The notes: generated by a model not told the origin, from the letters alone. A stretch of 64,000 bases of DNA from Candidatus Kapaibacterium sp. (GCA_038229915.1 JBBRNY010000001.1:102891-166890); one strand, 5' to 3'; numbered from the stretch's first letter, positions 2-31,718 are shown. Numbers and translations are program-made.

Positions 2-988
2 ATTTATTGGGCTTCTGTAAGTCAGTTGTCTCTCAGTAACTACTTTATGGGCGCTGATATTTCTCGTGGTGGTGGTCGTATCGTTGTCACAGACCCACAG
101 GTACCGATCATTCCGCCGATCTATAGTGATCCGTTCGGAACGAACATCGGTCAGGATCTCAACACTGGTGATATCTCTTGCGTCTATGCAATGGAAAATA
201 TTGCTAACAGTGGTAACTGGGCTATTTGGATGCCGGGTAGTGGCTTTTGGCCTCCGATGTATCCATCAGCTTTCAGCAACTACCTCGCATGGGGTACGTA
301 TATCTGTAATCCTTGCGGTGACGGATTCTTTGCACCATACTATTGGAACAATGCAGGTTCGTACAATCCTATGATTCGTGCAATGGTTAGCCAAACTGGT
401 ATCTTGCCAGTCGAACTTACTTACTTGCATGGCAAGAGCGATAACGGCAAAGCTGTTCTCACATGGGCTACCGCTCAGGAAAAGAACAACCAAGGCTTCT
501 TCGTTGAACGCCGCCGTGTTGACCAAGCCGACGGATTCTTCGAAAAGATTTCGTTCGTCAATGGTAAGGTCAATTCGAATACCGAAACCGGATATTCGTT
601 CGTTGATCGCAACGTAACACCTGGTACATATACCTACCGCTTGACCCAAATGGATCTTGATGGTAGCCAACATGTCACCAATACGGTTAATGTTGAGATC
701 GGTGCTCCGACGAACTTCACGTTGGAACAGAACTATCCGAATCCGTTCAATCCGTCAACTGACATCAGCTTCACATTGCCAGAAGGCGCACCAACCAAAC
801 TCGTGATCTACAACACGCTTGGTCAGGTCGTCCGTACGCTTGTCGATGGCTATGTCAAGACCGGTACAACAACCGTTCATTTTGACGCGAAAGACGATGC
901 TGGTAACGAACTCGCAAGTGGTTCGTACCTCTACAAGATCAATAGCGGATCGTACACTGCGACCCGTAAAATGAACTTGTCGAAATAA
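2..988 (+). CDS. Secreted protein with T9SS (Por) C-terminal sorting domain; 5'-partial, since the frame is open to the window start and the listed start at 26 is TTG
   Basis: C-terminal ~80 aa (NYPNPFNPSTDISFTLPEGAPTKLVIYNTLGQVVRTL...SGSYLYKI) matches the type-A T9SS CTD pattern. No stop codon in frame upstream of 26. Confidence 0.65.
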   Translation: MYWASVSQLSLSNYFMGADISRGGGRIVVTDPQVPIIPPIYSDPFGTNIGQDLNTGDISCVYAMENIANSGNWAIWMPGSGFWPPMYPSAFSNYLAWGTYICNPCGDGFFAPYYWNNAGSYNPMIRAMVSQTGILPVELTYLHGKSDNGKAVLTWATAQEKNNQGFFVERRRVDQADGFFEKISFVNGKVNSNTETGYSFVDRNVTPGTYTYRLTQMDLDGSQHVTNTVNVEIGAPTNFTLEQNYPNPFNPSTDISFTLPEGAPTKLVIYNTLGQVVRTLVDGYVKTGTTTVHFDAKDDAGNELASGSYLYKINSGSYTATRKMNLSK

Positions 989-12813: not shown

Positions 12814-14048
12814 TACTGATAGAGTAAATATTTCTTGCGTTGTATACGAAAACGAGATTCGTCCTGCTTCCATAATGCTATTACGGACTCAGGTGATGTT
12901 GCGGTTTGGAAGGCCTTTAGGATTGCGGTCGTCCCCGTGACCTTCTCGAACATTCGTTTCGATGAAAACACTACAGCCGAATAGGCTTTCGCAAAATTAG
13001 TATCTTTCAGTAATGCTGTGAATATCTTGAATTGTGCTTGATAAAGCGATTTGATCGTGCGAATGTTTTTTGGTAATGTGATCGCAACACCGTGATAGGT
13101 CTTTTGCGAATCGGCATAGGGCACGGTAAAATCTTCCGCATTAATAAATAGCTCCGGTGAGATAGCGCGCTTCGCGGCATCAAGCAACACCTCGGTCGGA
13201 ACAAGTCGCGAGCCGAGTCTGAGAAACGGCGTATCAGAACCGATACCAACCGAGAGCACGCCAAGCTCGCCGATAGCGCCAAACATCGCCGCACCGACGG
13301 CACTTTCGAACGTCGGAATGTTTGGGCTTGGTGCAGTCCAATCAAGTCCGGTCTCGCGCCATGTCATCGTGCGTTTCCAATCGGACATTGCGATCACCGT
13401 TAGCTTGAGTTTTGTAGCTGACTTAAACCACCTCTCACCCACAGCCATTTTCGCAATTTCGCCGAGAGTCATTCCATGAATATACGGGATCGGTACTTGC
13501 CCGACAAACGAGCGAAGTGTTGTATCAAGAATATTACCTTCGATGCGATCACCCCCAATTGGATTAGGACGATCGAGCACTACAAACTCGATCTTGTTTT
13601 CGGCGGCCGCCTCCATCGCAAGGATCATCGTCGAGAGATAGGTATATGGTCTGACGCCAATGTCTTGAATATCAAAGACGAGCACATCAATTCCGCGGAG
13701 CATTTTTTTTGTCGGCTTTCGGGTCGAGCCATACAGCGAATAGACAGGGATGCCGCGATAGCTCGTTGCCGTGTCGCTCGTAGCACCGGCTTTACGAACC
13801 CCCGAAAACCCATGCTCAGGCGAAAAAAGAGCAACCAACTCCAAAGGATTGTCTAAAAACACATCCGGACCAAACTCCCCGTCGTTCGTGCGCGAGGTCT
13901 GGTTACAGATCAAACCGACGGGTTTGGATGACAAGATCGAATGCTCGCTCGATGCCAATAGGTCGAGCCCAGTTTTGGTAAGGCCAATAGCCGAGGACGA
14001 AACAAAGCAGAAAAAAACCGTGAATGCAACAAAGTGAAAGCGTGGCAT
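12813..14048 (-). CDS. DUF1343 family protein (NamZ/YbbC-like exo-beta-N-acetylmuramidase)
   Basis: Signal peptide. Conserved DUF1343 blocks (LFSPEHGF, GIDVLVFDIQDIGVRPYTY, FVVLDRPNPIGG, IPYIHGMTLGE). In-frame ATG at 14048 gives MPRFHFVAFTVFF... Confidence 0.75.
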   Translation of the reverse strand: MPRFHFVAFTVFFCFVSSSAIGLTKTGLDLLASSEHSILSSKPVGLICNQTSRTNDGEFGPDVFLDNPLELVALFSPEHGFSGVRKAGATSDTATSYRGIPVYSLYGSTRKPTKKMLRGIDVLVFDIQDIGVRPYTYLSTMILAMEAAAENKIEFVVLDRPNPIGGDRIEGNILDTTLRSFVGQVPIPYIHGMTLGEIAKMAVGERWFKSATKLKLTVIAMSDWKRTMTWRETGLDWTAPSPNIPTFESAVGAAMFGAIGELGVLSVGIGSDTPFLRLGSRLVPTEVLLDAAKRAISPELFINAEDFTVPYADSQKTYHGVAITLPKNIRTIKSLYQAQFKIFTALLKDTNFAKAYSAVVFSSKRMFEKVTGTTAILKAFQTATSPESVIALWKQDESRFRIQRKKYLLYQ

Positions 14049-14158
14049 TAATTTACTTGATATTTTGTCGTAGTATAACAAGTATAGAGCTTGTGGGTTC
14101 TTTTTGGATGGTTGTTTATCGGGGTGAGATAGCGATTTTAGAAAAACGATAATCACTT

Positions 14159-15154
14159 ATGAATATTTCTTTTTTAGCTATATTTTTTTTAAGTATACTA
14201 TTTGGAAGCTCAACTGCACAATTTCCACGGGTAAGCGGCGCGCCAACTTCAAACAGTTGTTATAGATTTAAAGTGGATCAGCTAACCTATAGTCCACCAT
14301 TAAAAATGGATATGTCGTACCAGACGTTACTAGGGTACATCTATTTTGATAGCCTCTTGAGGAATATTTCAAACTACAAACAGATAGATACCTTTTTAAG
14401 TAAGATCAATAACTTTGATAGACTAAAATATTTTGATGCCTTACTATATGCAATGCAAGATTATGATGCGATCCTTTTCGACGAATTTTGTCTTGCAGCA
14501 AATTCTGTAAATAGCAATTATCACTCCAACCCCCTCGATATTTTGGGGGATTATTATCAGAAAGCAAAAAAAATATCAGTGCCAATTAAACATAAACTGC
14601 TTGTTCTGACCGGGATAATTCAACGGATAAAAATTAAAAACATCACCGAGGATATAGACACATTCTGCCATTCTCCTGTTCATCCATTACCAAAATTATG
14701 TATCACAGCAGAAGTACTGGATACCATAAAAGGAAAACATTTTGTTTCTATAAATTGCAGTACATTAGGGGTGCCTGCAAATCCATGCATCAATTTCTCC
14801 TATTCACCACTTTGGGATTATTCAGGTGAAGAATCAATTGAAATTACACATCTTGTATATGACTCTATTACGGGGACCGCTAGGACGAGGCATCCGTATG
14901 GCTCAAATTTTCTAAAAATTGATTCAGAGTATATATGTTTTCTAGGCGATGTAATGTATGATAATGACGGCCAATTTTCTTATTATAATTATTCGCCTGA
15001 AAGAGCCCCTGGATTACATGGAGGGTTTTTACCTATAAGTTCAAGTGGCTATGTTAAGGACCAAAGCAATATTTTTGGATATGGCACAAGTGTACCCAAA
15101 AGTGTATTTATTGATTCACTCCGCCAAGATATATATTCCATTTTACATCCTTAA
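14159..15154 (+). CDS. Hypothetical secreted Cys-containing protein, encoded in an AT-rich (~33% GC) island
   Basis: Signal peptide (FLAIFFLSILFGSSTAQ). No recognisable family. Strong compositional and codon-usage contrast with neighbours. Confidence 0.5.
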   Translation: MNISFLAIFFLSILFGSSTAQFPRVSGAPTSNSCYRFKVDQLTYSPPLKMDMSYQTLLGYIYFDSLLRNISNYKQIDTFLSKINNFDRLKYFDALLYAMQDYDAILFDEFCLAANSVNSNYHSNPLDILGDYYQKAKKISVPIKHKLLVLTGIIQRIKIKNITEDIDTFCHSPVHPLPKLCITAEVLDTIKGKHFVSINCSTLGVPANPCINFSYSPLWDYSGEESIEITHLVYDSITGTARTRHPYGSNFLKIDSEYICFLGDVMYDNDGQFSYYNYSPERAPGLHGGFLPISSSGYVKDQSNIFGYGTSVPKSVFIDSLRQDIYSILHP

Positions 15155-22651: not shown

Positions 22652-25600
22652 ATGCTATACCGGAAAAAAACGTCATATTATTTTGCAGTTCTCGCAGTTA
22701 TTTTTCTACTGCTTGCCGAGACACGTACTGTTGATGCTTCGTGGCAACGCATCGCAAAATTGCCGACGACGGTGGGTTGCTGTTTTTTTACAAATGACCT
22801 CACCGGTTGGGCTGGCTCAGGTTCGACAGGACAAGACTTGCCGTTACAAATTTGGTTTACGACCAACGGCGGGTATTTTTGGTCTGCGGCAAACGTCCCT
22901 GTCGGTAGCGGACAAGTGACACAAATTTCCATTCGTGCTGATGGTGTGGGGTATGCCTCGATATACTCTCAAAAAAATCCGACGATCAATCTTTGGAAAA
23001 CTATTGATGGTGGATATTCCTGGGCTGATGTTTCAACGGGCTCTCATCTTGGTACCGGTGCCGGTATCACGCCTACATTGCAAGGCTTTGCTTCATGGGT
23101 GTTGCCTGTCAATTCGGGCGGCAATACAAATGGCGTGTTCTTTATGGATGATAACACGATGCTCATCACGCTCGGACCAAACTCAGGTCAGGAAGCTTGG
23201 GGTGCTTATGGCGACCCGCAAACAAGAATTTGGTACCGCGTTACTGAACTGAGTAGATCAATAGATTTTTCAAAAAATGGCGGCAGTAATTGGGTTGGTC
23301 GCTTTGGTCTCGGACCATTTCTCACTTCGGGTCTTCCGACAGGCTATATTCACGGCAAAGGCGGAGTGCTCTATGTTCAAACGGAGCGTGACGGAATGTT
23401 CAGGAGCGGTGTCGGAGATTCTGGGCGAACATGGTTTCCTATTGGTGGTCCATCGAATTATGTCGATACTCGTTCGTTTTATGTTGGTGGTTGTCGTGGC
23501 GAAATGGCATTAGCATTTGATGAGGTCGGTGGTCTTTGGAAAACAACAGATGGTGGTGATGGGAATCTTGGTCAGATCGCGCCACTGAGTTTTACCCATC
23601 CTAAATTTCAACAGATACCTTCGTGTCAGAATGAAATACGTACGATTAAGTTTACGAATTATCATTGCTATGATTACGTCGTCAATGCGATCACGTTTGT
23701 CAATAATACAGCAGGCGCGTTTTCATTGCAACTCCCAACATTACCCGATACACTCAAGAGCGGTGAAACCGATTCATTCAAAGTATTTTTTGATCCATCC
23801 AAAAAACCGGGCGGCTATAATGCTCGCATCCAATTGAGTGGAGTGTTCTTATCCTCAATAGGACCGATCAAAGTTGATAGTCTCATAGACATCACCGCAA
23901 GCGCGTCAGCCGAACAACCAGATATGGTGATCAAGCCATTGAAAATAAACTTTGATAGCGTGTCGGTCTGTGGTGGTTTTGCCGATTCGTTTTTTACGAT
24001 CAAAAACACCGGCTGTGATACGATCACGATCACTTCCGGTCCGGGCGGAATATCATCTGATTTTACGATCGACCCACTCTCACTTCCCTACCGAATTTCT
24101 CCTGATAGTGAGATCATTATTCGCTGTCACTACAAACCAAGCTCAAAAGGTTTGGTGCAAACCTATCCGTCATATACTGCAACCCAACAGGGACTCAGCA
24201 CTTCGCAAATGATCGAGTTCGATGGTTTTGGCGAAGACGGGCGCGGGGAGCTTGCGATCAAACCTTTATCAATTGATCTGGACACACTTTCGATCTGCGG
24301 AAATGGCGACTCGGCACTTGTCACGATCTATAACATCGGCTGTGGTGCGCTTCTTGTCGATGGAGTTACGATCTCTGGGGCTCCGGAATATTCTGTGGTA
24401 AGTGTTGGTGCAAGACGTTCGATCGCTCCTTCAGATTCAGTAACGACCTGGGTTCATTTTGTGCCATCAATCAAAGGTAAGCGAACGGCTTTAGTAAATA
24501 TAACGACACATAGTAACTCGGCTGATTCGACGGTAATGCAGAAGAGCATTCCGGTGCAAACAGAAGTGATCTCCGGTAAAGGTATTTTTTCGTCGCCGCT
24601 TTCGATCGTCGATCTCGGTACACTTTCATTTTGTGAAACACGCGACACGACGTTAACTTTTACCAATATCGGTTGTGATACATTAGTCATCACCAGCGGA
24701 AGTATTATCGGCAACGGGTTTATTCTTACTGGAAGTTTTCCGATCATCGTTCCGCCAAATAAGATCGTGAGTATTGCTGTTCGCGCAACTCCTGATGCAT
24801 CCTCAGGACAGAAGAATTTTTCGGCAACGGTAATATTATTGATCGATGGTGTCACGACCGTAAAACCTGTGATACTATCATACTCCACCAAGATAGCGCC
24901 GACACTGGCACTTTGGCTCACGATAGACCAACCTCGAGCCACCGTTGGTGATATTGTTACGGTCAGACTCAAAGCTGATCCGGCGCAACTTCCGATCTGT
25001 TCATCGCTTGATGTCTCGATCGGCTTGAATGATGATCTGCTCAGCTTTGTAGGTTCTCGCGGAGCCAATACCATTACGAAAAATTCGTTAGGAAAATATA
25101 CGATCAAAAATGCTTCGAGAATTCAAGCCGCGAGTGATAGCTCGATCGCTGTGTTTGATTACGAGGTGTTCGTGACAAAAGATACGATAACCGATATCGT
25201 ACTTACGCCGATCCTAATAAACAACGCTGTGCCTGGCACCGACCCTTGCGCACCACAAGCGACGGCCCAAGGAGCTTCGTTTCAATATACCGATCAATGT
25301 GGCGACGCACTCTTGCACCATAGTATGCGTGGCGACTTAGCTAGTCTTCGTGTTTTTAGTATTGCACCAAATCCAACGGCTGGTAATACGCAAATAGAAA
25401 TAGGTTCTACTGAAGAATCGGACGTTGAACTAACAATATTTTCTTCTATTGGAGTTGAGCTTCACCGGCAACAACAGCATCTCCAGATCGGAAATACTAC
25501 CGTCACTCTTGAGAGTAACCAATTACCGAACGGTGTTTATACGCTGGTGACAAGATCAAATAATTCGAGAGTGATAAGCCGACTCGTGATCATAAAATAA
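22652..25600 (+). CDS. Large (982 aa) T9SS-sorted surface protein: BNR/Ycf48-like beta-propeller, three Cys-bracketed Ig-like repeats, T9SS CTD
   Basis: Signal peptide. Repeated xTxDGGxxW motifs (WFTTNGGYFW, WKTIDGGYSW, SKNGGSNW, WKTTDGGDG). Three repeats with CGG/CG...NxGC (SVCGGFADSFFTIKNTGCDTITITS, SICGNGDSALVTIYNIGCGALLV, SFCETRDTTLTFTNIGCDTLVITS). C-terminus FSIAPNPTAGNTQIEI...GVYTLV is a T9SS type-A CTD. Confidence 0.65.
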   Translation: MLYRKKTSYYFAVLAVIFLLLAETRTVDASWQRIAKLPTTVGCCFFTNDLTGWAGSGSTGQDLPLQIWFTTNGGYFWSAANVPVGSGQVTQISIRADGVGYASIYSQKNPTINLWKTIDGGYSWADVSTGSHLGTGAGITPTLQGFASWVLPVNSGGNTNGVFFMDDNTMLITLGPNSGQEAWGAYGDPQTRIWYRVTELSRSIDFSKNGGSNWVGRFGLGPFLTSGLPTGYIHGKGGVLYVQTERDGMFRSGVGDSGRTWFPIGGPSNYVDTRSFYVGGCRGEMALAFDEVGGLWKTTDGGDGNLGQIAPLSFTHPKFQQIPSCQNEIRTIKFTNYHCYDYVVNAITFVNNTAGAFSLQLPTLPDTLKSGETDSFKVFFDPSKKPGGYNARIQLSGVFLSSIGPIKVDSLIDITASASAEQPDMVIKPLKINFDSVSVCGGFADSFFTIKNTGCDTITITSGPGGISSDFTIDPLSLPYRISPDSEIIIRCHYKPSSKGLVQTYPSYTATQQGLSTSQMIEFDGFGEDGRGELAIKPLSIDLDTLSICGNGDSALVTIYNIGCGALLVDGVTISGAPEYSVVSVGARRSIAPSDSVTTWVHFVPSIKGKRTALVNITTHSNSADSTVMQKSIPVQTEVISGKGIFSSPLSIVDLGTLSFCETRDTTLTFTNIGCDTLVITSGSIIGNGFILTGSFPIIVPPNKIVSIAVRATPDASSGQKNFSATVILLIDGVTTVKPVILSYSTKIAPTLALWLTIDQPRATVGDIVTVRLKADPAQLPICSSLDVSIGLNDDLLSFVGSRGANTITKNSLGKYTIKNASRIQAASDSSIAVFDYEVFVTKDTITDIVLTPILINNAVPGTDPCAPQATAQGASFQYTDQCGDALLHHSMRGDLASLRVFSIAPNPTAGNTQIEIGSTEESDVELTIFSSIGVELHRQQQHLQIGNTTVTLESNQLPNGVYTLVTRSNNSRVISRLVIIK

Positions 25601-27488: not shown

Positions 27489-27737
27489 TGACGATTTAGT
27501 CTCGTGAGAATGCTCTTAATGCTTGAATTTTATGTGCTATCCCAACAGCTTCATGGAATGAAGAATTGCCAAATTTGCAACCAAAACGGAGAGAATTCGA
27601 GGAAAGTATCATCCTAAAATATTTATGTTAAGCGCCGTTAACTTACACGATCAAAGGATATAGCAACATTAACAAAGTTTTTTTCTATGGACGTGTAACA
27701 GAAGGAAATTTGGCGAGTTTATACTGAGCGGACAAGT

Positions 27738-28018
27738 GTGTTCGTATATTTGCCCATTGAAATATATGCTTTTACGACGGGAGGCCCCATCTCTGACGTA
27801 TATTTGCATAGCGCGGTAGTGTGACCCCCTCCGCAGAATCGAGCAATAAGTACATTTATTTGCATTCGCGAAAGTTATTGCTTATATTTGTATTGTTCAG
27901 TTTGAAGGATTTTGTGCATAAGTGCTTTTTCCACGAAACGGAAATTATGGCGCGGCGCATTTTTCTTCGTATATTTATATTTCCGACTTCAGCCGGGAAA
28001 TCTTCGTATATTTGTGGA
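27738..28018 (+). promoter_or_regulatory. Array of six copies of YTCGTATATTTGY (embedding the Bacteroidetes -7 box TAnnTTTG) upstream of the giant repeat-protein gene
   Basis: Copies at about 27740, 27794, 27849 (degenerate), 27879, 27965 and 28001, within a 636-bp non-coding region. Confidence 0.45.
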
Positions 28019-28124
28019 GATTACTATCTGAGGGTGTGCCACGAAGGGGGCACGAGTCGGAAAAAAAGTTTACTAAATAGAAACGTTTCGTTCAATTAAT
28101 TTAAAATCAATAGGAGACGAAGGT

Positions 28125-31100
28125 ATGACTTCACGTCGTTCAATTATGTTAAGCTTGATGCTCGGGGCTTTCCTGAGTGTTACTGGTCTTAACACTGCTT
28201 ATGCCCAAGTCCCGCGTAGTATATCCTACCAGGGGCTATTGATCAAAGCCAATCAGCCTGTTACAGCACAGGTCAATGTCAAGATCAATGTATACAATGC
28301 AGCGGGTCAGGTTCTCTATACAGAGACCATGAATCAGGTGCAGGTAAACAATGGTATTTTTAATGTGCTTCTCGGCGGCAACGCAGGTAACTTGCCATCA
28401 AACTTGAAGTTTGATGAACAATACTACCTCGGCGTTGATGTCGATAACACCGGTGAAATCTCGCCGCGTACTCCTTTCACTGCTGCTCCGTATGCCTTGA
28501 ATGCGCAGACGGTCGGTGGTGTTGGTGTTTCTGTTACTCCGCAGCCTGGCATGTTGTTGCCATTGGATGCTAACGGAAAGATCCCTGCTTCGGTATTGCC
28601 ACAGGCAACCCAGGCAATTGACAACATCAACGGTGTGACCGGTGATGTGTCAGGCAAACTCAATCTTACAGGTGATGGCACTATTACCGTTACCAGCAAC
28701 CCTGCAACAAACACCATTAAGTTGGGTTTTGCTGGCGGAACTGGCAATGGCATTAAGCACATCATGACAGGACCAGGACTCACCGGCGGCGGATCTGACA
28801 CAACTGTCGAGATTCACGTTGCTGATAACGGTATCGTCACCAACATGATCGGAACCGGCGTAGTAACCGGAATGAAACTCGATCAGTATGTTGCTGGTAT
28901 CGGACTTGGCCAAGATATTCTCGGAAACTTGAATATCAACTATAACAAGACCTTAACCATCGTTGGTAGCAACTTAGACACTTTAGGTCTAAATCTTGCT
29001 AATCCAAACACATGGACTGGTTTGCAGACCTTCAATGGCGGTATCACCGTAGGTGGTACAACGACACTTGTAGGACCTGTAATCATTACTGGTAACACAA
29101 CTCAGACTGGCAACTACTCATTGAACGGTAATTTCTCCGTCAAAGGTATTGCTGAGCCAAATGCTCTTAACGGCGCTGCAGTTGCCAATTACGAGATCAT
29201 CGATACCGGTGATTTACGTGTGTTGGGCTTCTCGTACTTGAATGGTAACACCGACATCAATGGCTCGATCCAAAACTCGTCAGCCAATAACGGTGGTGCA
29301 GTATTCATTGCAGACCCACAAGGTTTGACAAACAGCACTGGTAATATCACCAACACTGCTGGTAACATTGTCAACACACTTGGTAACATCAACAACCTTG
29401 CTGGTAACATCAACAACACTGGTCAGATCAACAACACCGGTGCTTTGAATGAAATCGGTATTTCTACTTTGAATGGCAACCTCATTCAGGGTAACGGTAC
29501 TGGCACAACAGCTACTTTCCAGAACAACAGTGCTATCTTTAACTTGACAAACTCTGGTACCAATGGTAACAGTGTTATCGTTAATGGTACTCCTGAGCCA
29601 AACGTTGGAAGTGCTGCTCTTGTACAGAACTATGATCTTACAGACAATGGTGACCTTCGCGTCACAGGTACTTCTAACCTTATTGGTAATACCTTCTTGA
29701 ACCAGACATTGACTGTCGCTGGTGTAACAACCACCAACATTTTGACCAACACTGGTGCATTCACCAACACTGGCACATTTACCGAGACTGGTGCTTCGAC
29801 CTTCAATGGTACGATCAACCAGACTGGTGCTGCTAACACTGTTACTTTCGCTGGACCAACAACGATCAATAACACATTGAACGTCACAGGTCTTTCGACA
29901 TTGACTGGTGTAACCAACAACGGTACATTGACCCAGAGTGGTGTCATCACACAAACAAGTCTTGGTGTCGCACCGAACAATACATTGCTTTCAACTAACT
30001 TCACTGGTAACGTTTTGATCAGTGGTACACTTAGTAACGCAGGTAATGCAACACTCGGAACAGGTGCTGGAACAACAAACACGCTCGGTAATGCTGGAAG
30101 CAGCACCAACACGATCACCGGTTTGAACAACCAGATCATTGCAACCAATACCAATACGATCACCGGATTGATCAACAATATCAACGGTACAACGAATATC
30201 AATGGTAACACACAGATTAACGGTACACTTGGAACTACAGGTAACGTTACTCTCGGTACAGCAAGCACAACAAACACCTTCGGTGCTGTTGGAAGCGCTA
30301 ACCGCTTTAACGGTGTATCGAACTTCGGTTCACTTCCAGCTGGTAACGGTAATAAGTTGATCGTTGATGGTATTCCTAATACCTTGGCACCAACTGCACC
30401 GACAAACTTGCCTCCTGGCTTTGTACAGCCTACTGATTACGAACAGATCATCAATGGTGACCTCTTAGTAACCGGTTTCTCAAACTTGAGAAGCGCAACG
30501 ATCGGTGATCTCTTGGTCACAAACTCTTTCACACTTCCTGCTTCAGCAAGCTTCTGCGCAAACAACATTCAGGTTGCTCAGTTGTCTTCATGGTGCGGTG
30601 GTGCAGCTGGTGCAGCGATTGCTGTTAATACAGCTTTCAACCAGAACAGCCTCGGAACAAGTGCTTTTAACACATTCCTTGGTACGAACTTCACAGGTAA
30701 TGTTGCTATCACAGGTGGTTTGTCTTCAACTGGCAACACTTCGCTTGCAACTCTTCCTGGTTCTTCAGCTACACTCGGAAATAGCACAGGCGCAACAATC
30801 GTCAATGGTAGCACTGTTACTGTAAATGGTCCAACGACCATCAATGGTACAACCGCTCACAATGGTAGCATCACTCAGACTTCAGGTAGTGCTCAGTTCT
30901 TGAATACTCAAGTTAACGGTACACTTGGTTCGACTGGTAACGTTACTCTTGGTACAGCGAGCACGACCAACACGATCGGTGCTGCTGGTGCAACGAACAC
31001 CTTGACCGGTTTGAACAACCAGTTGCTTGCTACTGCAGCAAACACATTGACTGCACCTCAGAATAACCTCAACGGTGTTTTGAACCAAACTGGTAGCTCA

Positions 31101-31580
31101 AACTTCACTGGTGGTACAACAACGTTCACCAACAACCCTGTTGTCTTGAACAACTCGAACATCAACGGTAGCAATAACAGTAATATCAGCAATGTAACTA
31201 CTGTTCAGGCTAACGTCAGCATGACGATCGGTGTTGGTACACAGGCAACTACATTGACAAGCACCAACACAACGGGTGCTGCCATCAACCAGCAGTTGGC
31301 TTCAGTTGGCGGTAAGATCCCGGTTTATCTCCGTCAGATCTCGCAGTTCACTGGTGTCGGTGGTGGACCAAACGGTGGTGCAGTTACACCTGTCATCAAC
31401 TTTGGTGCTAATGGCTTTGATAACAACGATGCTATCACAGTTACCTACTACACACGTAACGGTGCACAGTTCGGACAAATGTATCCGGTTAACATCAACG
31501 CTGTAGCAGGAACGCTTCAGGTTGAGTCAACCAATCCATTGGATGTCAACACTGTACAGGTTGTAATCTTAAGAGACTAA
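28125..31580 (+). CDS. Giant (1151 aa) secreted Thr/Asn/Gly-rich repetitive beta-rich fibrous protein (surface fibril, S-layer or adhesin candidate)
   Basis: Signal peptide ending AYAQ. About 150-aa N-terminal globular domain. Hundreds of NxTG/NTxTGxxN short repeats, including five tandem 7-aa (21-nt) units, three larger modules starting ..NY(D/E)...GDLRVTGxSNL, and a ~75-nt internal duplication. Globular C-terminal ~90 aa. Codon use strongly biased (GGT, AAC, ACT/ACC, GTT). Confidence 0.7.
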   Translation: MTSRRSIMLSLMLGAFLSVTGLNTAYAQVPRSISYQGLLIKANQPVTAQVNVKINVYNAAGQVLYTETMNQVQVNNGIFNVLLGGNAGNLPSNLKFDEQYYLGVDVDNTGEISPRTPFTAAPYALNAQTVGGVGVSVTPQPGMLLPLDANGKIPASVLPQATQAIDNINGVTGDVSGKLNLTGDGTITVTSNPATNTIKLGFAGGTGNGIKHIMTGPGLTGGGSDTTVEIHVADNGIVTNMIGTGVVTGMKLDQYVAGIGLGQDILGNLNINYNKTLTIVGSNLDTLGLNLANPNTWTGLQTFNGGITVGGTTTLVGPVIITGNTTQTGNYSLNGNFSVKGIAEPNALNGAAVANYEIIDTGDLRVLGFSYLNGNTDINGSIQNSSANNGGAVFIADPQGLTNSTGNITNTAGNIVNTLGNINNLAGNINNTGQINNTGALNEIGISTLNGNLIQGNGTGTTATFQNNSAIFNLTNSGTNGNSVIVNGTPEPNVGSAALVQNYDLTDNGDLRVTGTSNLIGNTFLNQTLTVAGVTTTNILTNTGAFTNTGTFTETGASTFNGTINQTGAANTVTFAGPTTINNTLNVTGLSTLTGVTNNGTLTQSGVITQTSLGVAPNNTLLSTNFTGNVLISGTLSNAGNATLGTGAGTTNTLGNAGSSTNTITGLNNQIIATNTNTITGLINNINGTTNINGNTQINGTLGTTGNVTLGTASTTNTFGAVGSANRFNGVSNFGSLPAGNGNKLIVDGIPNTLAPTAPTNLPPGFVQPTDYEQIINGDLLVTGFSNLRSATIGDLLVTNSFTLPASASFCANNIQVAQLSSWCGGAAGAAIAVNTAFNQNSLGTSAFNTFLGTNFTGNVAITGGLSSTGNTSLATLPGSSATLGNSTGATIVNGSTVTVNGPTTINGTTAHNGSITQTSGSAQFLNTQVNGTLGSTGNVTLGTASTTNTIGAAGATNTLTGLNNQLLATAANTLTAPQNNLNGVLNQTGSSNFTGGTTTFTNNPVVLNNSNINGSNNSNISNVTTVQANVSMTIGVGTQATTLTSTNTTGAAINQQLASVGGKIPVYLRQISQFTGVGGGPNGGAVTPVINFGANGFDNNDAITVTYYTRNGAQFGQMYPVNINAVAGTLQVESTNPLDVNTVQVVILRD
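29340..29445 (+). repeat. Five tandem 21-nt (heptad GNIxNTx) coding repeats inside the giant gene
   Basis: ggtaatatcaccaacactgct / ggtaacattgtcaacacactt / ggtaacatcaacaaccttgct / ggtaacatcaacaacact... Confidence 0.7.
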
Positions 31581-31690
31581 TTGAACGACGTTCCACGGTT
31601 TGAGATCTCGGGACACTACTTTGCAGTATGCCCCGAGAGCTCAGCCGGGAATTAACAAACAGATTTTTCTACGTCAGAGAGAGTTCACGA

Positions 31691-31718
31691 AAAACCCCGT
31701 CAATGCGACGGGGTTTTT
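31691..31718. terminator. Strong bidirectional rho-independent terminator
   Basis: aaaa ccccgtc aatgc gacgggg ttttt. A second weaker hairpin (tctcggg...cccgaga) lies at ~31596-31630. Confidence 0.8.

Follow-up and report, generated by a model that had tools for sequence, protein, structure and literature searches.

A conserved gene of Candidatus Kapaibacterium probably encodes a surface fibre built on the plan of phage tail fibres

The window analyzed here is a 64,000-nucleotide stretch of DNA from Candidatus Kapaibacterium sp. (GCA_038229915.1 JBBRNY010000001.1:102891-166890), in which an open reading frame (ORF) at 28125..31580 (+), starting with ATG and comprising 1151 codons plus a stop, encodes a repetitive protein. 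We estimate a probability of about 0.6 that the product of this gene is a fibre of the cell surface, built like a phage tail fibre and either belonging to the mosaic adhesive trimer (MAT) type or closely analogous to it; judging from sequence and analogy, the fibre is most likely both abundant and adhesive. A preliminary description of the same DNA had proposed a Thr/Asn/Gly-rich product forming an exported, phage-tail-fibre-like fibre or an S-layer-like structure. The ORF call and the composition (T 15.9%, N 14.6%, G 13.9%) agreed with that description, and the fibre proposal gained support from the signal peptide, the family of the N-terminal domain and the tailspike-type C-terminal knob. 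Charged residues are scarce (Lys, Arg, Asp and Glu together make up ~5%) and are absent altogether from residues 601-700 and 801-1000. Searches of the whole protein against Pfam, NCBIfam and PHROGs returned nothing at E<=1. The Bacteroidota-Chlorobiota radiation includes the Kapaibacteria and their relatives, which are widespread and uncultured, and we know of no study of the cell surface of these bacteria. Because the gene occupies one conserved position in every orthologous genome examined, its product is a candidate principal surface structure of Kapaibacterium-like bacteria.

In the arrangement that we propose, the precursor would be exported via a cleavable signal peptide, leaving a Gln at the N-terminus. 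The N-terminal beta-sandwich, together with an invariant LPLDANGKIP segment, may form a cell-proximal base that docks on an envelope component, as suggested by the conservation gradient and by the analogy with MAT proteins. The ~900 residues of Gly/Asn/Thr-rich repeats, each of 6-7 residues, would then wind into a thin beta-helix, probably as an intertwined homotrimer, to give a shaft that three conserved junction modules appear to break. At the distal end, the K1-lyase_C-type knob may nucleate or lock the trimer, bind a glycan ligand, or both. Fold and homology of the knob come from models and profile comparisons, whereas its function is proposed by analogy with tailspikes, R-pyocin fibres and H-type lectins. 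Scaled from the Bdellovibrio fibre protein Bd2133, in which 370 residues extend over about 150 Å, the fibre would measure ~40-50 nm. It would likely serve in attachment to surfaces, to particles or to other cells, or form a fibrillar coat.

The predicted signal peptide covers residues 1-27 (28125..28205, +), carries a conserved MTSRRS n-region and ends at a predicted cleavage site between AYA and Q, so that MTSRRSIMLSLMLGAFLSVTGLNTAYA would be removed from a mature chain starting with QVPRS. This boundary, which confirmed the cleavable signal peptide suggested earlier, is also backed by paralogs, in which differing signals all stop just before the common Q-[VI]-P-[RQ]-x-[IF]-[ST]-Y-Q-G. The Gln at position +1 fits the Q-rule described for signal peptidase I substrates of Bacteroidetes (PMC5837995).

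The base domain (residues 28-132; 28206..28520, +) is common to a large mosaic family of fibres. AlphaFold2 modelled a confident beta-sandwich at residues 30-120 (pLDDT, the predicted local distance difference test score, 81-89), in agreement with the N-terminal globular domain previously noted. Its mean identity among orthologs is 68%, and residues 28-128 share 37-38% identity with the N-domains of proteins ending in Peptidase_S74, whether or not these also carry YadA_head repeats. Among species-representative genomes, 185 loci matching the strict pattern Q[VI]P[RQ][STN][IF][ST]YQG were confirmed, in Kapaibacterium, Ignavibacteriota, Chlorobiota, Saprospiraceae, Chitinophagales, Cytophagia, Calditrichota and KSB1, and individual genomes hold several paralogs. 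For example, genome CAYOJJ01 holds the ortholog (L007) and two paralogs (L024 and L029), Co_metawrap_2078 the ortholog (L009) and three (L048, L056 and L062), and JANYDV01, the closest relative of the window, the ortholog (L005) and one (L080). Paralogs range in length from 341 to >2195 aa and differ in their tips (DUF7452 in three, S74 in two, WD40 plus CarboxypepD_reg in one, and tips of unknown type in four), and S74-type relatives number >2700 and bear the NCBI name 'tail fiber domain-containing protein'. On this sequence evidence, the window protein belongs to a large mosaic family sharing the N-domain, a point missed by the preliminary description.

No Pfam model and no relative in the PDB were found for the N-domain, and a profile search with it of 5.8 billion proteins recovered short fragments only. 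The Peptidase_S74 chaperone (PF13884, SDxxxK motif), which paralogs elsewhere possess, was not found in the window protein, and a search seeded with S74-type paralogs gave no Bdellovibrio protein among the best 120 matches. The three paralogs L029, L062 and L080 end in DUF7452 (PF24249), with the conserved C-terminus ...W.IFNE.....P....FN[VI]L[VI]I[KR]Q, a further uncharacterized type of tip within this fibre family.

The other confidently modelled domain is the C-terminal beta-sandwich knob (residues 1047-1151; 31263..31577, +), a homolog of K1-lyase_C, which is found in phage tailspikes. When the last 105 residues were modelled alone they gave a pLDDT of 86.9 and a predicted template modelling score of 0.72, as of an independently folding domain with a tailspike/lectin-like fold, and residues 1066-1150 of the full-length AlphaFold2 model also formed a beta-sandwich (pLDDT 81-92). 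Matches of the knob in BFVD were mostly named 'K1 capsule-specific polysaccharide lyase C-terminal domain-containing protein'. The corresponding Pfam model, PF24146, was matched below threshold by three of seven family members (20.4, 13.9 and 9.7 bits; gathering score 27), the window protein itself giving no match. A profile of the knob found two signal-less, phage-like proteins (P0186 and P0188) at ~1e-5, both of which contain PF24146 at 1e-14 to 1e-15, and hhalign aligned the knob with the PF24146-type domain at 93% probability (E = 3e-7) over a common motif, ND.I.V.Y...G.L...[TV].[IV]ES[ST]..D.NTV...I.R. C-terminal domains of tailspikes serve trimerisation and/or host recognition (PMC10653864).

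The knob profile recovered just 33 representatives among 1.84 billion proteins, nearly all at the extreme C-terminus, and because the domain is so rare it is unlikely to be a general sorting signal. Judged by sequence and model, then, the knob is a phage tailspike module and not a secretion tag, which had escaped the first reading of the sequence. The comparisons described here provide a family context for two unannotated domains, namely the N-terminal base domain and the divergent K1-lyase_C knob.

A count of homologs, which the preliminary description had recommended, gave 47 relatives in 5.8 billion clustered proteins, all of them unannotated and all from metagenome-assembled genomes labelled Kapabacteria/Kapaibacterium, Ignavibacteriota or Bacteroidota. 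Orthologs at 61%, ~50%, ~45% and ~40% identity share the same location: on one side a 520-570-bp spacer separates them from the divergent TerC (and hemerythrin), and on the other they converge with a flavin reductase (Flavin_Reduct) that often precedes PanK and BirA. The order TerC / fibre / Flavin_Reduct is kept at identities as low as 38-46%. This conserved synteny indicates that the fibre gene is single-copy, vertically inherited, monocistronic, without a conserved partner and not part of a prophage. It is a core gene of Kapaibacterium-like bacteria. Since only housekeeping genes flank it in the syntenic genomes, the earlier statements that it forms a monocistronic unit and lacks an adjacent export partner were both upheld. 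A tblastn search of 50,697 phage genomes with the mature protein gave no match. Conservation relative to the window protein falls along the chain, from 68-75% identity with almost no gaps at residues 1-165, to 51% with few gaps at residues 166-345 and 38-44% with 27-46% gaps in the shaft; the C-terminal domain stands at 39% with few gaps.

The closest described counterpart is the MAT superfamily, defined in Bdellovibrio by Caulton et al. in 2024 as 21 proteins of ~1000 aa (PMC10769870). In these proteins a signal peptide is followed by a conserved beta-rich N-domain of ~130 aa and by an intertwined trimeric beta-helix with recurrent capping loops, while the tip is an S74 chaperone or a swapped beta-sandwich, TNF-like or C-type-lectin domain; they reside on the cell surface, and the N-domain was proposed to bind a surface element (PMC10769870). 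The window protein resembles the non-S74 subgroup (e.g., Bd2133 and Bd1334) in its length of ~1000 aa, its signal peptide followed by a beta-rich N-domain of ~100-130 aa, and its C-terminal beta-sandwich/lectin-like tip in place of the S74 chaperone. Further likenesses to the Bdellovibrio proteins are a long, putatively beta-helical shaft with recurring loop motifs, as far as modelling indicates, and the many paralogs per genome with swapped tips; neither N-domain has a PDB relative (PMC10769870). Supplementary Table S3 of the same study places MATs in Saprospiraceae, Flavobacteriia and Omnitrophica (PMC10769870), and taxa of the Fibrobacterota-Chlorobiota-Bacteroidota (FCB) group, Saprospiraceae and Omnitrophica appear both in that list and amongst the present N-domain matches.

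The two systems also differ. The tip of the window protein is of the K1-lyase_C type, whereas those described in Bdellovibrio are TNF-like, C-type lectin and two novel sandwiches; the family of the window protein consists of a single-copy core gene at a syntenic position, shows signs of very high expression and has a conserved RR-containing signal peptide; and the Kapaibacterium host is not a known predator. If the link to MAT proteins holds, phage-derived fibres of base, shaft and tip would be a general device of the FCB group and not a speciality of predators. In that case, one paralog would apparently have been promoted to a core and probably highly expressed role, with a tip borrowed from phage capsule depolymerases.

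Several observations weigh against the interpretation as a MAT-type fibre. Membership of the MAT superfamily is probable, on a comparison with the Bdellovibrio N-domain by position and description. The strict capping-loop motif V-G-G/N-pi-x-x-P-x-x-x-L was not found in the window protein; relaxed loops occur (V.G[small]..P at 339 and 486, and VTLGTASTTNT[FI]G at 708 and 940), and the motif was called a common feature rather than a definition of the family (PMC10769870). Sequence and profile searches of the PDB with the whole family, the N-domain and the C-domain returned nothing meaningful. The shaft lies mostly below pLDDT 50 in the AlphaFold2 monomer, which is compatible with an obligate trimer and proves nothing. 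Additionally, within a fibre repertoire of several paralogs this gene probably has the strongest expression, but such high expression, like that put forward in the preliminary description, is read from codon usage, a strong, conserved Shine-Dalgarno site and a conserved leader. The Phe/Tyr/Ile/Asn codon bias of the orthologs is high but not unique among the genes around them.

Comparisons with other fibres help to place the protein. The K1-lyase_C tailspikes considered here (the K1 lyase of Klebsiella phage NTUH-K2044-K1-1, PDB 7W1C; S2-4 of phage K64-1, PDB 9K4A; and PF24146) differ from it in having a catalytic right-handed beta-helix and a particle-binding N-domain, whereas the window protein has a signal peptide, is a cellular core gene product and has no tblastn counterpart in the phage genomes searched. 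The 'tail fiber domain-containing proteins' of the FCB group and candidate phyla combine a signal peptide and the same N-domain with YadA-head-like repeats and a Peptidase_S74 chaperone. They share with the window protein a homologous N-domain (37-48% identity) and the GNV.[LI]GT... loop motif, but the window protein has another type of signal peptide, no S74 chaperone/protease and a far longer shaft that is richer in Gly/Asn/Thr. Likeness to R-type pyocin and phage tail fibres and to H-type lectins (discoidin I and Helix pomatia agglutinin) is structural only. By analogy, the protein may work like the trimeric autotransporter adhesins of the YadA family, as a trimeric surface fibre that is repetitive and rich in beta structure and follows the logic of head and stalk; unlike them it gives no Pfam YadA match, has no C-terminal membrane anchor/translocator, and is reversed in polarity, its conserved, presumed anchor being N-terminal.

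Amongst the rival explanations, a monomeric beta-solenoid (e.g., a left-handed helix of the hexapeptide type), serving as an adhesin, an ice- or mineral-binding protein or a spacer with no phage-like trimer, seems unlikely. It would suit the period-6 repeats and the 3-residue strands that AlphaFold2 placed every 6 residues at 545-605 (pLDDT ~70), and one homolog has been named 'predicted acyltransferase (DUF342 family)' by the Joint Genome Institute. However, no Hexapep or bactofilin match was found in Pfam, AlphaFold2 is usually confident on such folds yet scored most of this shaft poorly, and both end domains derive from trimeric fibre proteins. The same descent of the terminal domains, from fibre and tailspike families, argues against an S-layer or sheath protein whose monomers tile a two-dimensional lattice over the outer membrane. 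A single-copy core gene with apparently strong expression signals, encoding an exported product with very few charged residues, might be expected of such a protein, but the base-shaft-knob logic and the conservation gradient suit a fibre, and no S-layer family in Pfam or NCBIfam was matched; we therefore regard the S-layer-like structure of the preliminary description as rather improbable.

It is improbable, too, that the protein is a cargo of the type IX secretion system (T9SS), in which the knob would be a divergent C-terminal domain (CTD) recognized by the type IX system of this genome and the product would be anchored to lipopolysaccharide. Proteins with Por_Secre_tail at 22652-25600 and 26-988 show that the genome uses this system, and the knob, a small beta-sandwich whose last strand is conserved, lies at the very C-terminus. 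The T9SS CTD models PF18962 (Por_Secre_tail), TIGR04183 and TIGR04131 nevertheless gave no match at E<=10 in seven members of the family, which bears out the earlier remark that the non-repetitive C-terminal domain does not resemble a type-A CTD and, through TIGR04131, extends it to the type-B CTD whose check had been advised. Moreover, the few knob representatives belong essentially to the fibre family and to phage-like K1-lyase_C proteins, and are not spread over unrelated cargoes. With no CTD model matching and the domain too rare, the identification of the knob as a T9SS CTD was rejected. K1-lyase_C domains typically form the C-terminus of capsule depolymerases, which raises the question of a secreted tailspike-like polysaccharide depolymerase with its catalytic right-handed beta-helix hidden centrally, as in K1 lyases. 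This we consider highly improbable, since no Pectate_lyase, Beta_helix or other enzyme family was matched, the model shows no right-handed beta-helix, and 22-residue coils would need a longer period than the 6-7 residues of the repeats; the stretches at 601-700 and 801-1000 hold no candidate catalytic residues because they lack Asp, Glu, Lys and Arg. Finally, the phage-type knob and the tail-fibre-like composition might point to a structural gene of a prophage, tailocin or phage remnant instead of a cellular appendage. That reading is extremely improbable, given a signal peptide, a position between TerC and flavin reductase / PanK / BirA that even orthologs at ~40% identity share and that has no phage genes around it, and the lack of any match in the 50,697 phage genomes or in PHROGs.

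Returning to the proposed surface fibre, the region between its two end domains is organized as a hierarchy of repeats. The segment directly following the base domain, GVGVSVTPQPGMLLPLDANGKIPASVLPQ (residues 133-165; 28521..28619, +), is the best-conserved stretch of the protein (75%), and the proximal shaft (residues 166-338; 28620..29138, +), which carries an NPNTWTxLQTF motif, is moderately conserved (51%). Gly autocorrelation in the shaft peaks at lags 6, 7, 12 and 18, a period of 6-7 being dominant. The GNIxNTx heptads encoded by tandem 21-nt units, as already reported, were located by Tandem Repeats Finder at 29331..29437 (+), with 4-5.4 copies and 71-78% matches. Copy number in this array varies among close relatives, the window protein being one unit short of P0002 and P0003, which are 88% and 85% identical to it, and thus repeat number changes on short evolutionary time scales. 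An 18-nt tandem array (29745-29794) was found by the same program at the start of the hexad-periodic shaft (residues 545-605; 29745..29939, +), to which the short modelled strands belong. The full-length AlphaFold2 monomer, built with 44 sequences, had a mean pLDDT of 54 and was poor outside the two end domains; a Foldseek search of the PDB with this model gave generic beta-sandwiches only (E >= 0.012).

The three larger modules described previously were recovered as junction modules at residues 339-376 (29139..29252, +; VKGIAEPN...NYEIIDTGDLRVLGFSYLNGNT), 486-523 (29580..29693, +; VNGTPEPN...NYDLTDNGDLRVTGTSNLIGNT) and 747-792 (30363..30500, +; VDGIPNTLAP...DYEQIINGDLLVTGFSNLRSAT). All follow the motif [V.G..EPN...]NY[DE]....GDL.V.G.S.L.GNT, with GDL[RL]V.G starting at 362, 509 and 778. 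The only two cysteines of the protein, C811 and C824, lie in a conserved loop, FCANNIQVAQLSSWC (30555..30596, +). A duplicated motif, ...NGTLGTTGNVTLGTASTTNTFGAVG..., which resembles the GNVGIGTxxPxxKL loops of S74-type fibres, is present at 30207..30314 (+) and again at 30903..31010 (+), the copies matching at 77% over 108 nt. Its core, an internal duplication of some 75 nt that had been called near-identical, proved less so, as 30222-30298 and 30918-30994 agree at 61 of 77 positions (79% DNA identity) and at 21 of 25 residues. Because most differences are synonymous, the repeat is an old one maintained by protein-level selection, and not a recent duplication.

Codon usage was compared across the 49 ORFs of the window, a set that contains no reference highly expressed gene. 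The fibre ORF had the highest C-ending fraction for Phe/Tyr/Ile/Asn (0.68; mean 0.40, sd 0.10), and exceeded the remaining ORFs in GGT (0.68 vs 0.34), CGT (0.64 vs 0.29), GCT (0.54 vs 0.20) and CAG (0.82 vs 0.37), with an unremarkable GC content at third codon positions (GC3) of 0.45. The skew noted in the preliminary description is therefore real and not a GC3 effect, but the statement that Gly is almost always GGT was too strong at 68%. Its direction is that of translational selection in most bacteria. Orthologs keep the GGT preference (0.67, 0.43 and 0.42, vs <=0.33 in neighbour genes). In the literature, nothing usable was found on Kapabacteria proteomics. The second-strongest codon bias of the window is that of ORF 26-988 (+), whose small, secreted product combines FlgD_ig with a T9SS Por_Secre_tail domain (C-ending fraction 0.61, GGT 0.61, CGT 0.60).

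The intergenic region upstream of the gene, divergent from the TerC gene, spans exactly 636 bp (27489..28124, +) and would hold the promoter or promoters and a long leader. The repeated -7-like boxes reported in it were confirmed, with five GTATATTTG or one-mismatch boxes on the + strand within 270 nt, including three of the four exact copies of GTATATTTG in the window. With <=1 mismatch, GTATATTTG occurs 29 times in the window, above all 100 shuffles. By the Bacteroidetes sigma-A consensus, these TAnnTTTG boxes are putative -7 elements. Across 10 species-level orthologs the conserved upstream blocks are GTGTAACAG (27696-27704), boxes 1 and 3, GTTTGAAGGATTTTGTGCATAAG and the ribosome-binding region. 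Box 1 (CGTATATTTGCC, 27743..27754, +) and box 3 (TATATTTGT, 27883..27892, +) are invariant in these 10 species, together with a 23-nt block after box 3, where a conserved leader appears to start; a TTTG 20 nt upstream of box 3 is a candidate -33 element. Amongst the remaining boxes, box 2 (27798-27806, +) is not conserved, and boxes 4 (27969-27977, +) and 5 (28006-28014, +) are partly so.

The strong Shine-Dalgarno sequence AGGAG (28112-28116), found in full upstream of just two of the 49 window ORFs, and the first 20 nt of the coding sequence (ATGACTTCACGTCGTTCAAT; region 28112-28144) do not differ among 11 orthologs even at synonymous sites, whereas codons beyond vary freely. RNAalifold predicted a small 7-bp hairpin here, GACGAAG/CUUCACGUC, with the AUG in its loop (28112..28137, +; likewise invariant in 11 orthologs), and no other RNA structure in the leader. 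The hairpin is unproven, as an invariant sequence offers no covariation. An Rfam scan of the window found nothing.

The start of the protein bears on the export route. The N-terminus MTSRR[ST][IW][ML]L is kept even in relatives at 28-33% identity, whereas paralogs with the same N-domain carry ordinary signals, and S-R-R-S-I-M (family-wide S-R-R-[ST]-phi-phi), which is not present in the paralogs, fits a minimal twin-arginine translocation (Tat) motif. It is conceivable, if doubtful, that MTSRR[ST]-phi-phi marks a Tat substrate, such that the fibre would be folded and trimerised in the cytoplasm like phage fibres, exported folded and passed to the cell surface, and that, as part of the same doubtful proposal, it would dominate among the appendages of a whole bacterial class, with synthesis under the control of the deeply conserved leader and the start-codon hairpin. 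If true, bacterial surface fibres would have a new route of assembly. At ~2.1 Kyte-Doolittle the h-region of the signal is fairly hydrophobic, the Tat hidden Markov models PF10518 and TIGR01409 were silent at E<=10, and a search for TatC across 0.92 Mb of DNA gave no match, which is uninformative. The nucleotide-level constraint at the start region offers an alternative explanation for the invariance of MTSRR.

Downstream, the strong bidirectional terminator of the preliminary description was confirmed by reading and folding at 31690..31718, where the hairpin AAAAACCCCGTC-AATGC-GACGGGGTTTTT, a 7-bp GC stem extended by A5/T5, sits between the convergent genes. A simple consensus terminator scan did not list this hairpin, though it is evident from reading and folding. 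A second, longer imperfect hairpin (GAGAUCUCGGG...CCCCGAGAGCUC, 31598-31645) lies directly past the stop codon, upstream of the terminator, and the 153-nt 3' region containing both hairpins has a folding z of -8.1.

Elsewhere in the window, the ORF at 22652-25600 (+) encodes a 982-aa T9SS cargo with ASH/HYDIN-like Ig domains plus Por_Secre_tail, and is syntenic with counterparts of 1117 aa and 1018 aa that lie close to the fibre gene at loci L001 and L002. At 14001-15154, GC dips locally to 0.35, and this stretch contains a 331-aa ORF (14159-15154) with no Pfam match, located between NamZ exo-muramidase and sigma-54 genes. A long block of same-strand genes extends from 38321 to ~62000, and its synteny with L001 and L003, where the block opens with UDP-glucose/GDP-mannose dehydrogenase, UDP-GlcNAc 2-epimerase and Poly_export/SLBB, indicates that it is a surface polysaccharide cluster. 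Within it, at 46-51 kb, GC falls to 0.37-0.41 and AT skew to -0.14..-0.23, which suggests a horizontally exchanged, serotype-like segment.

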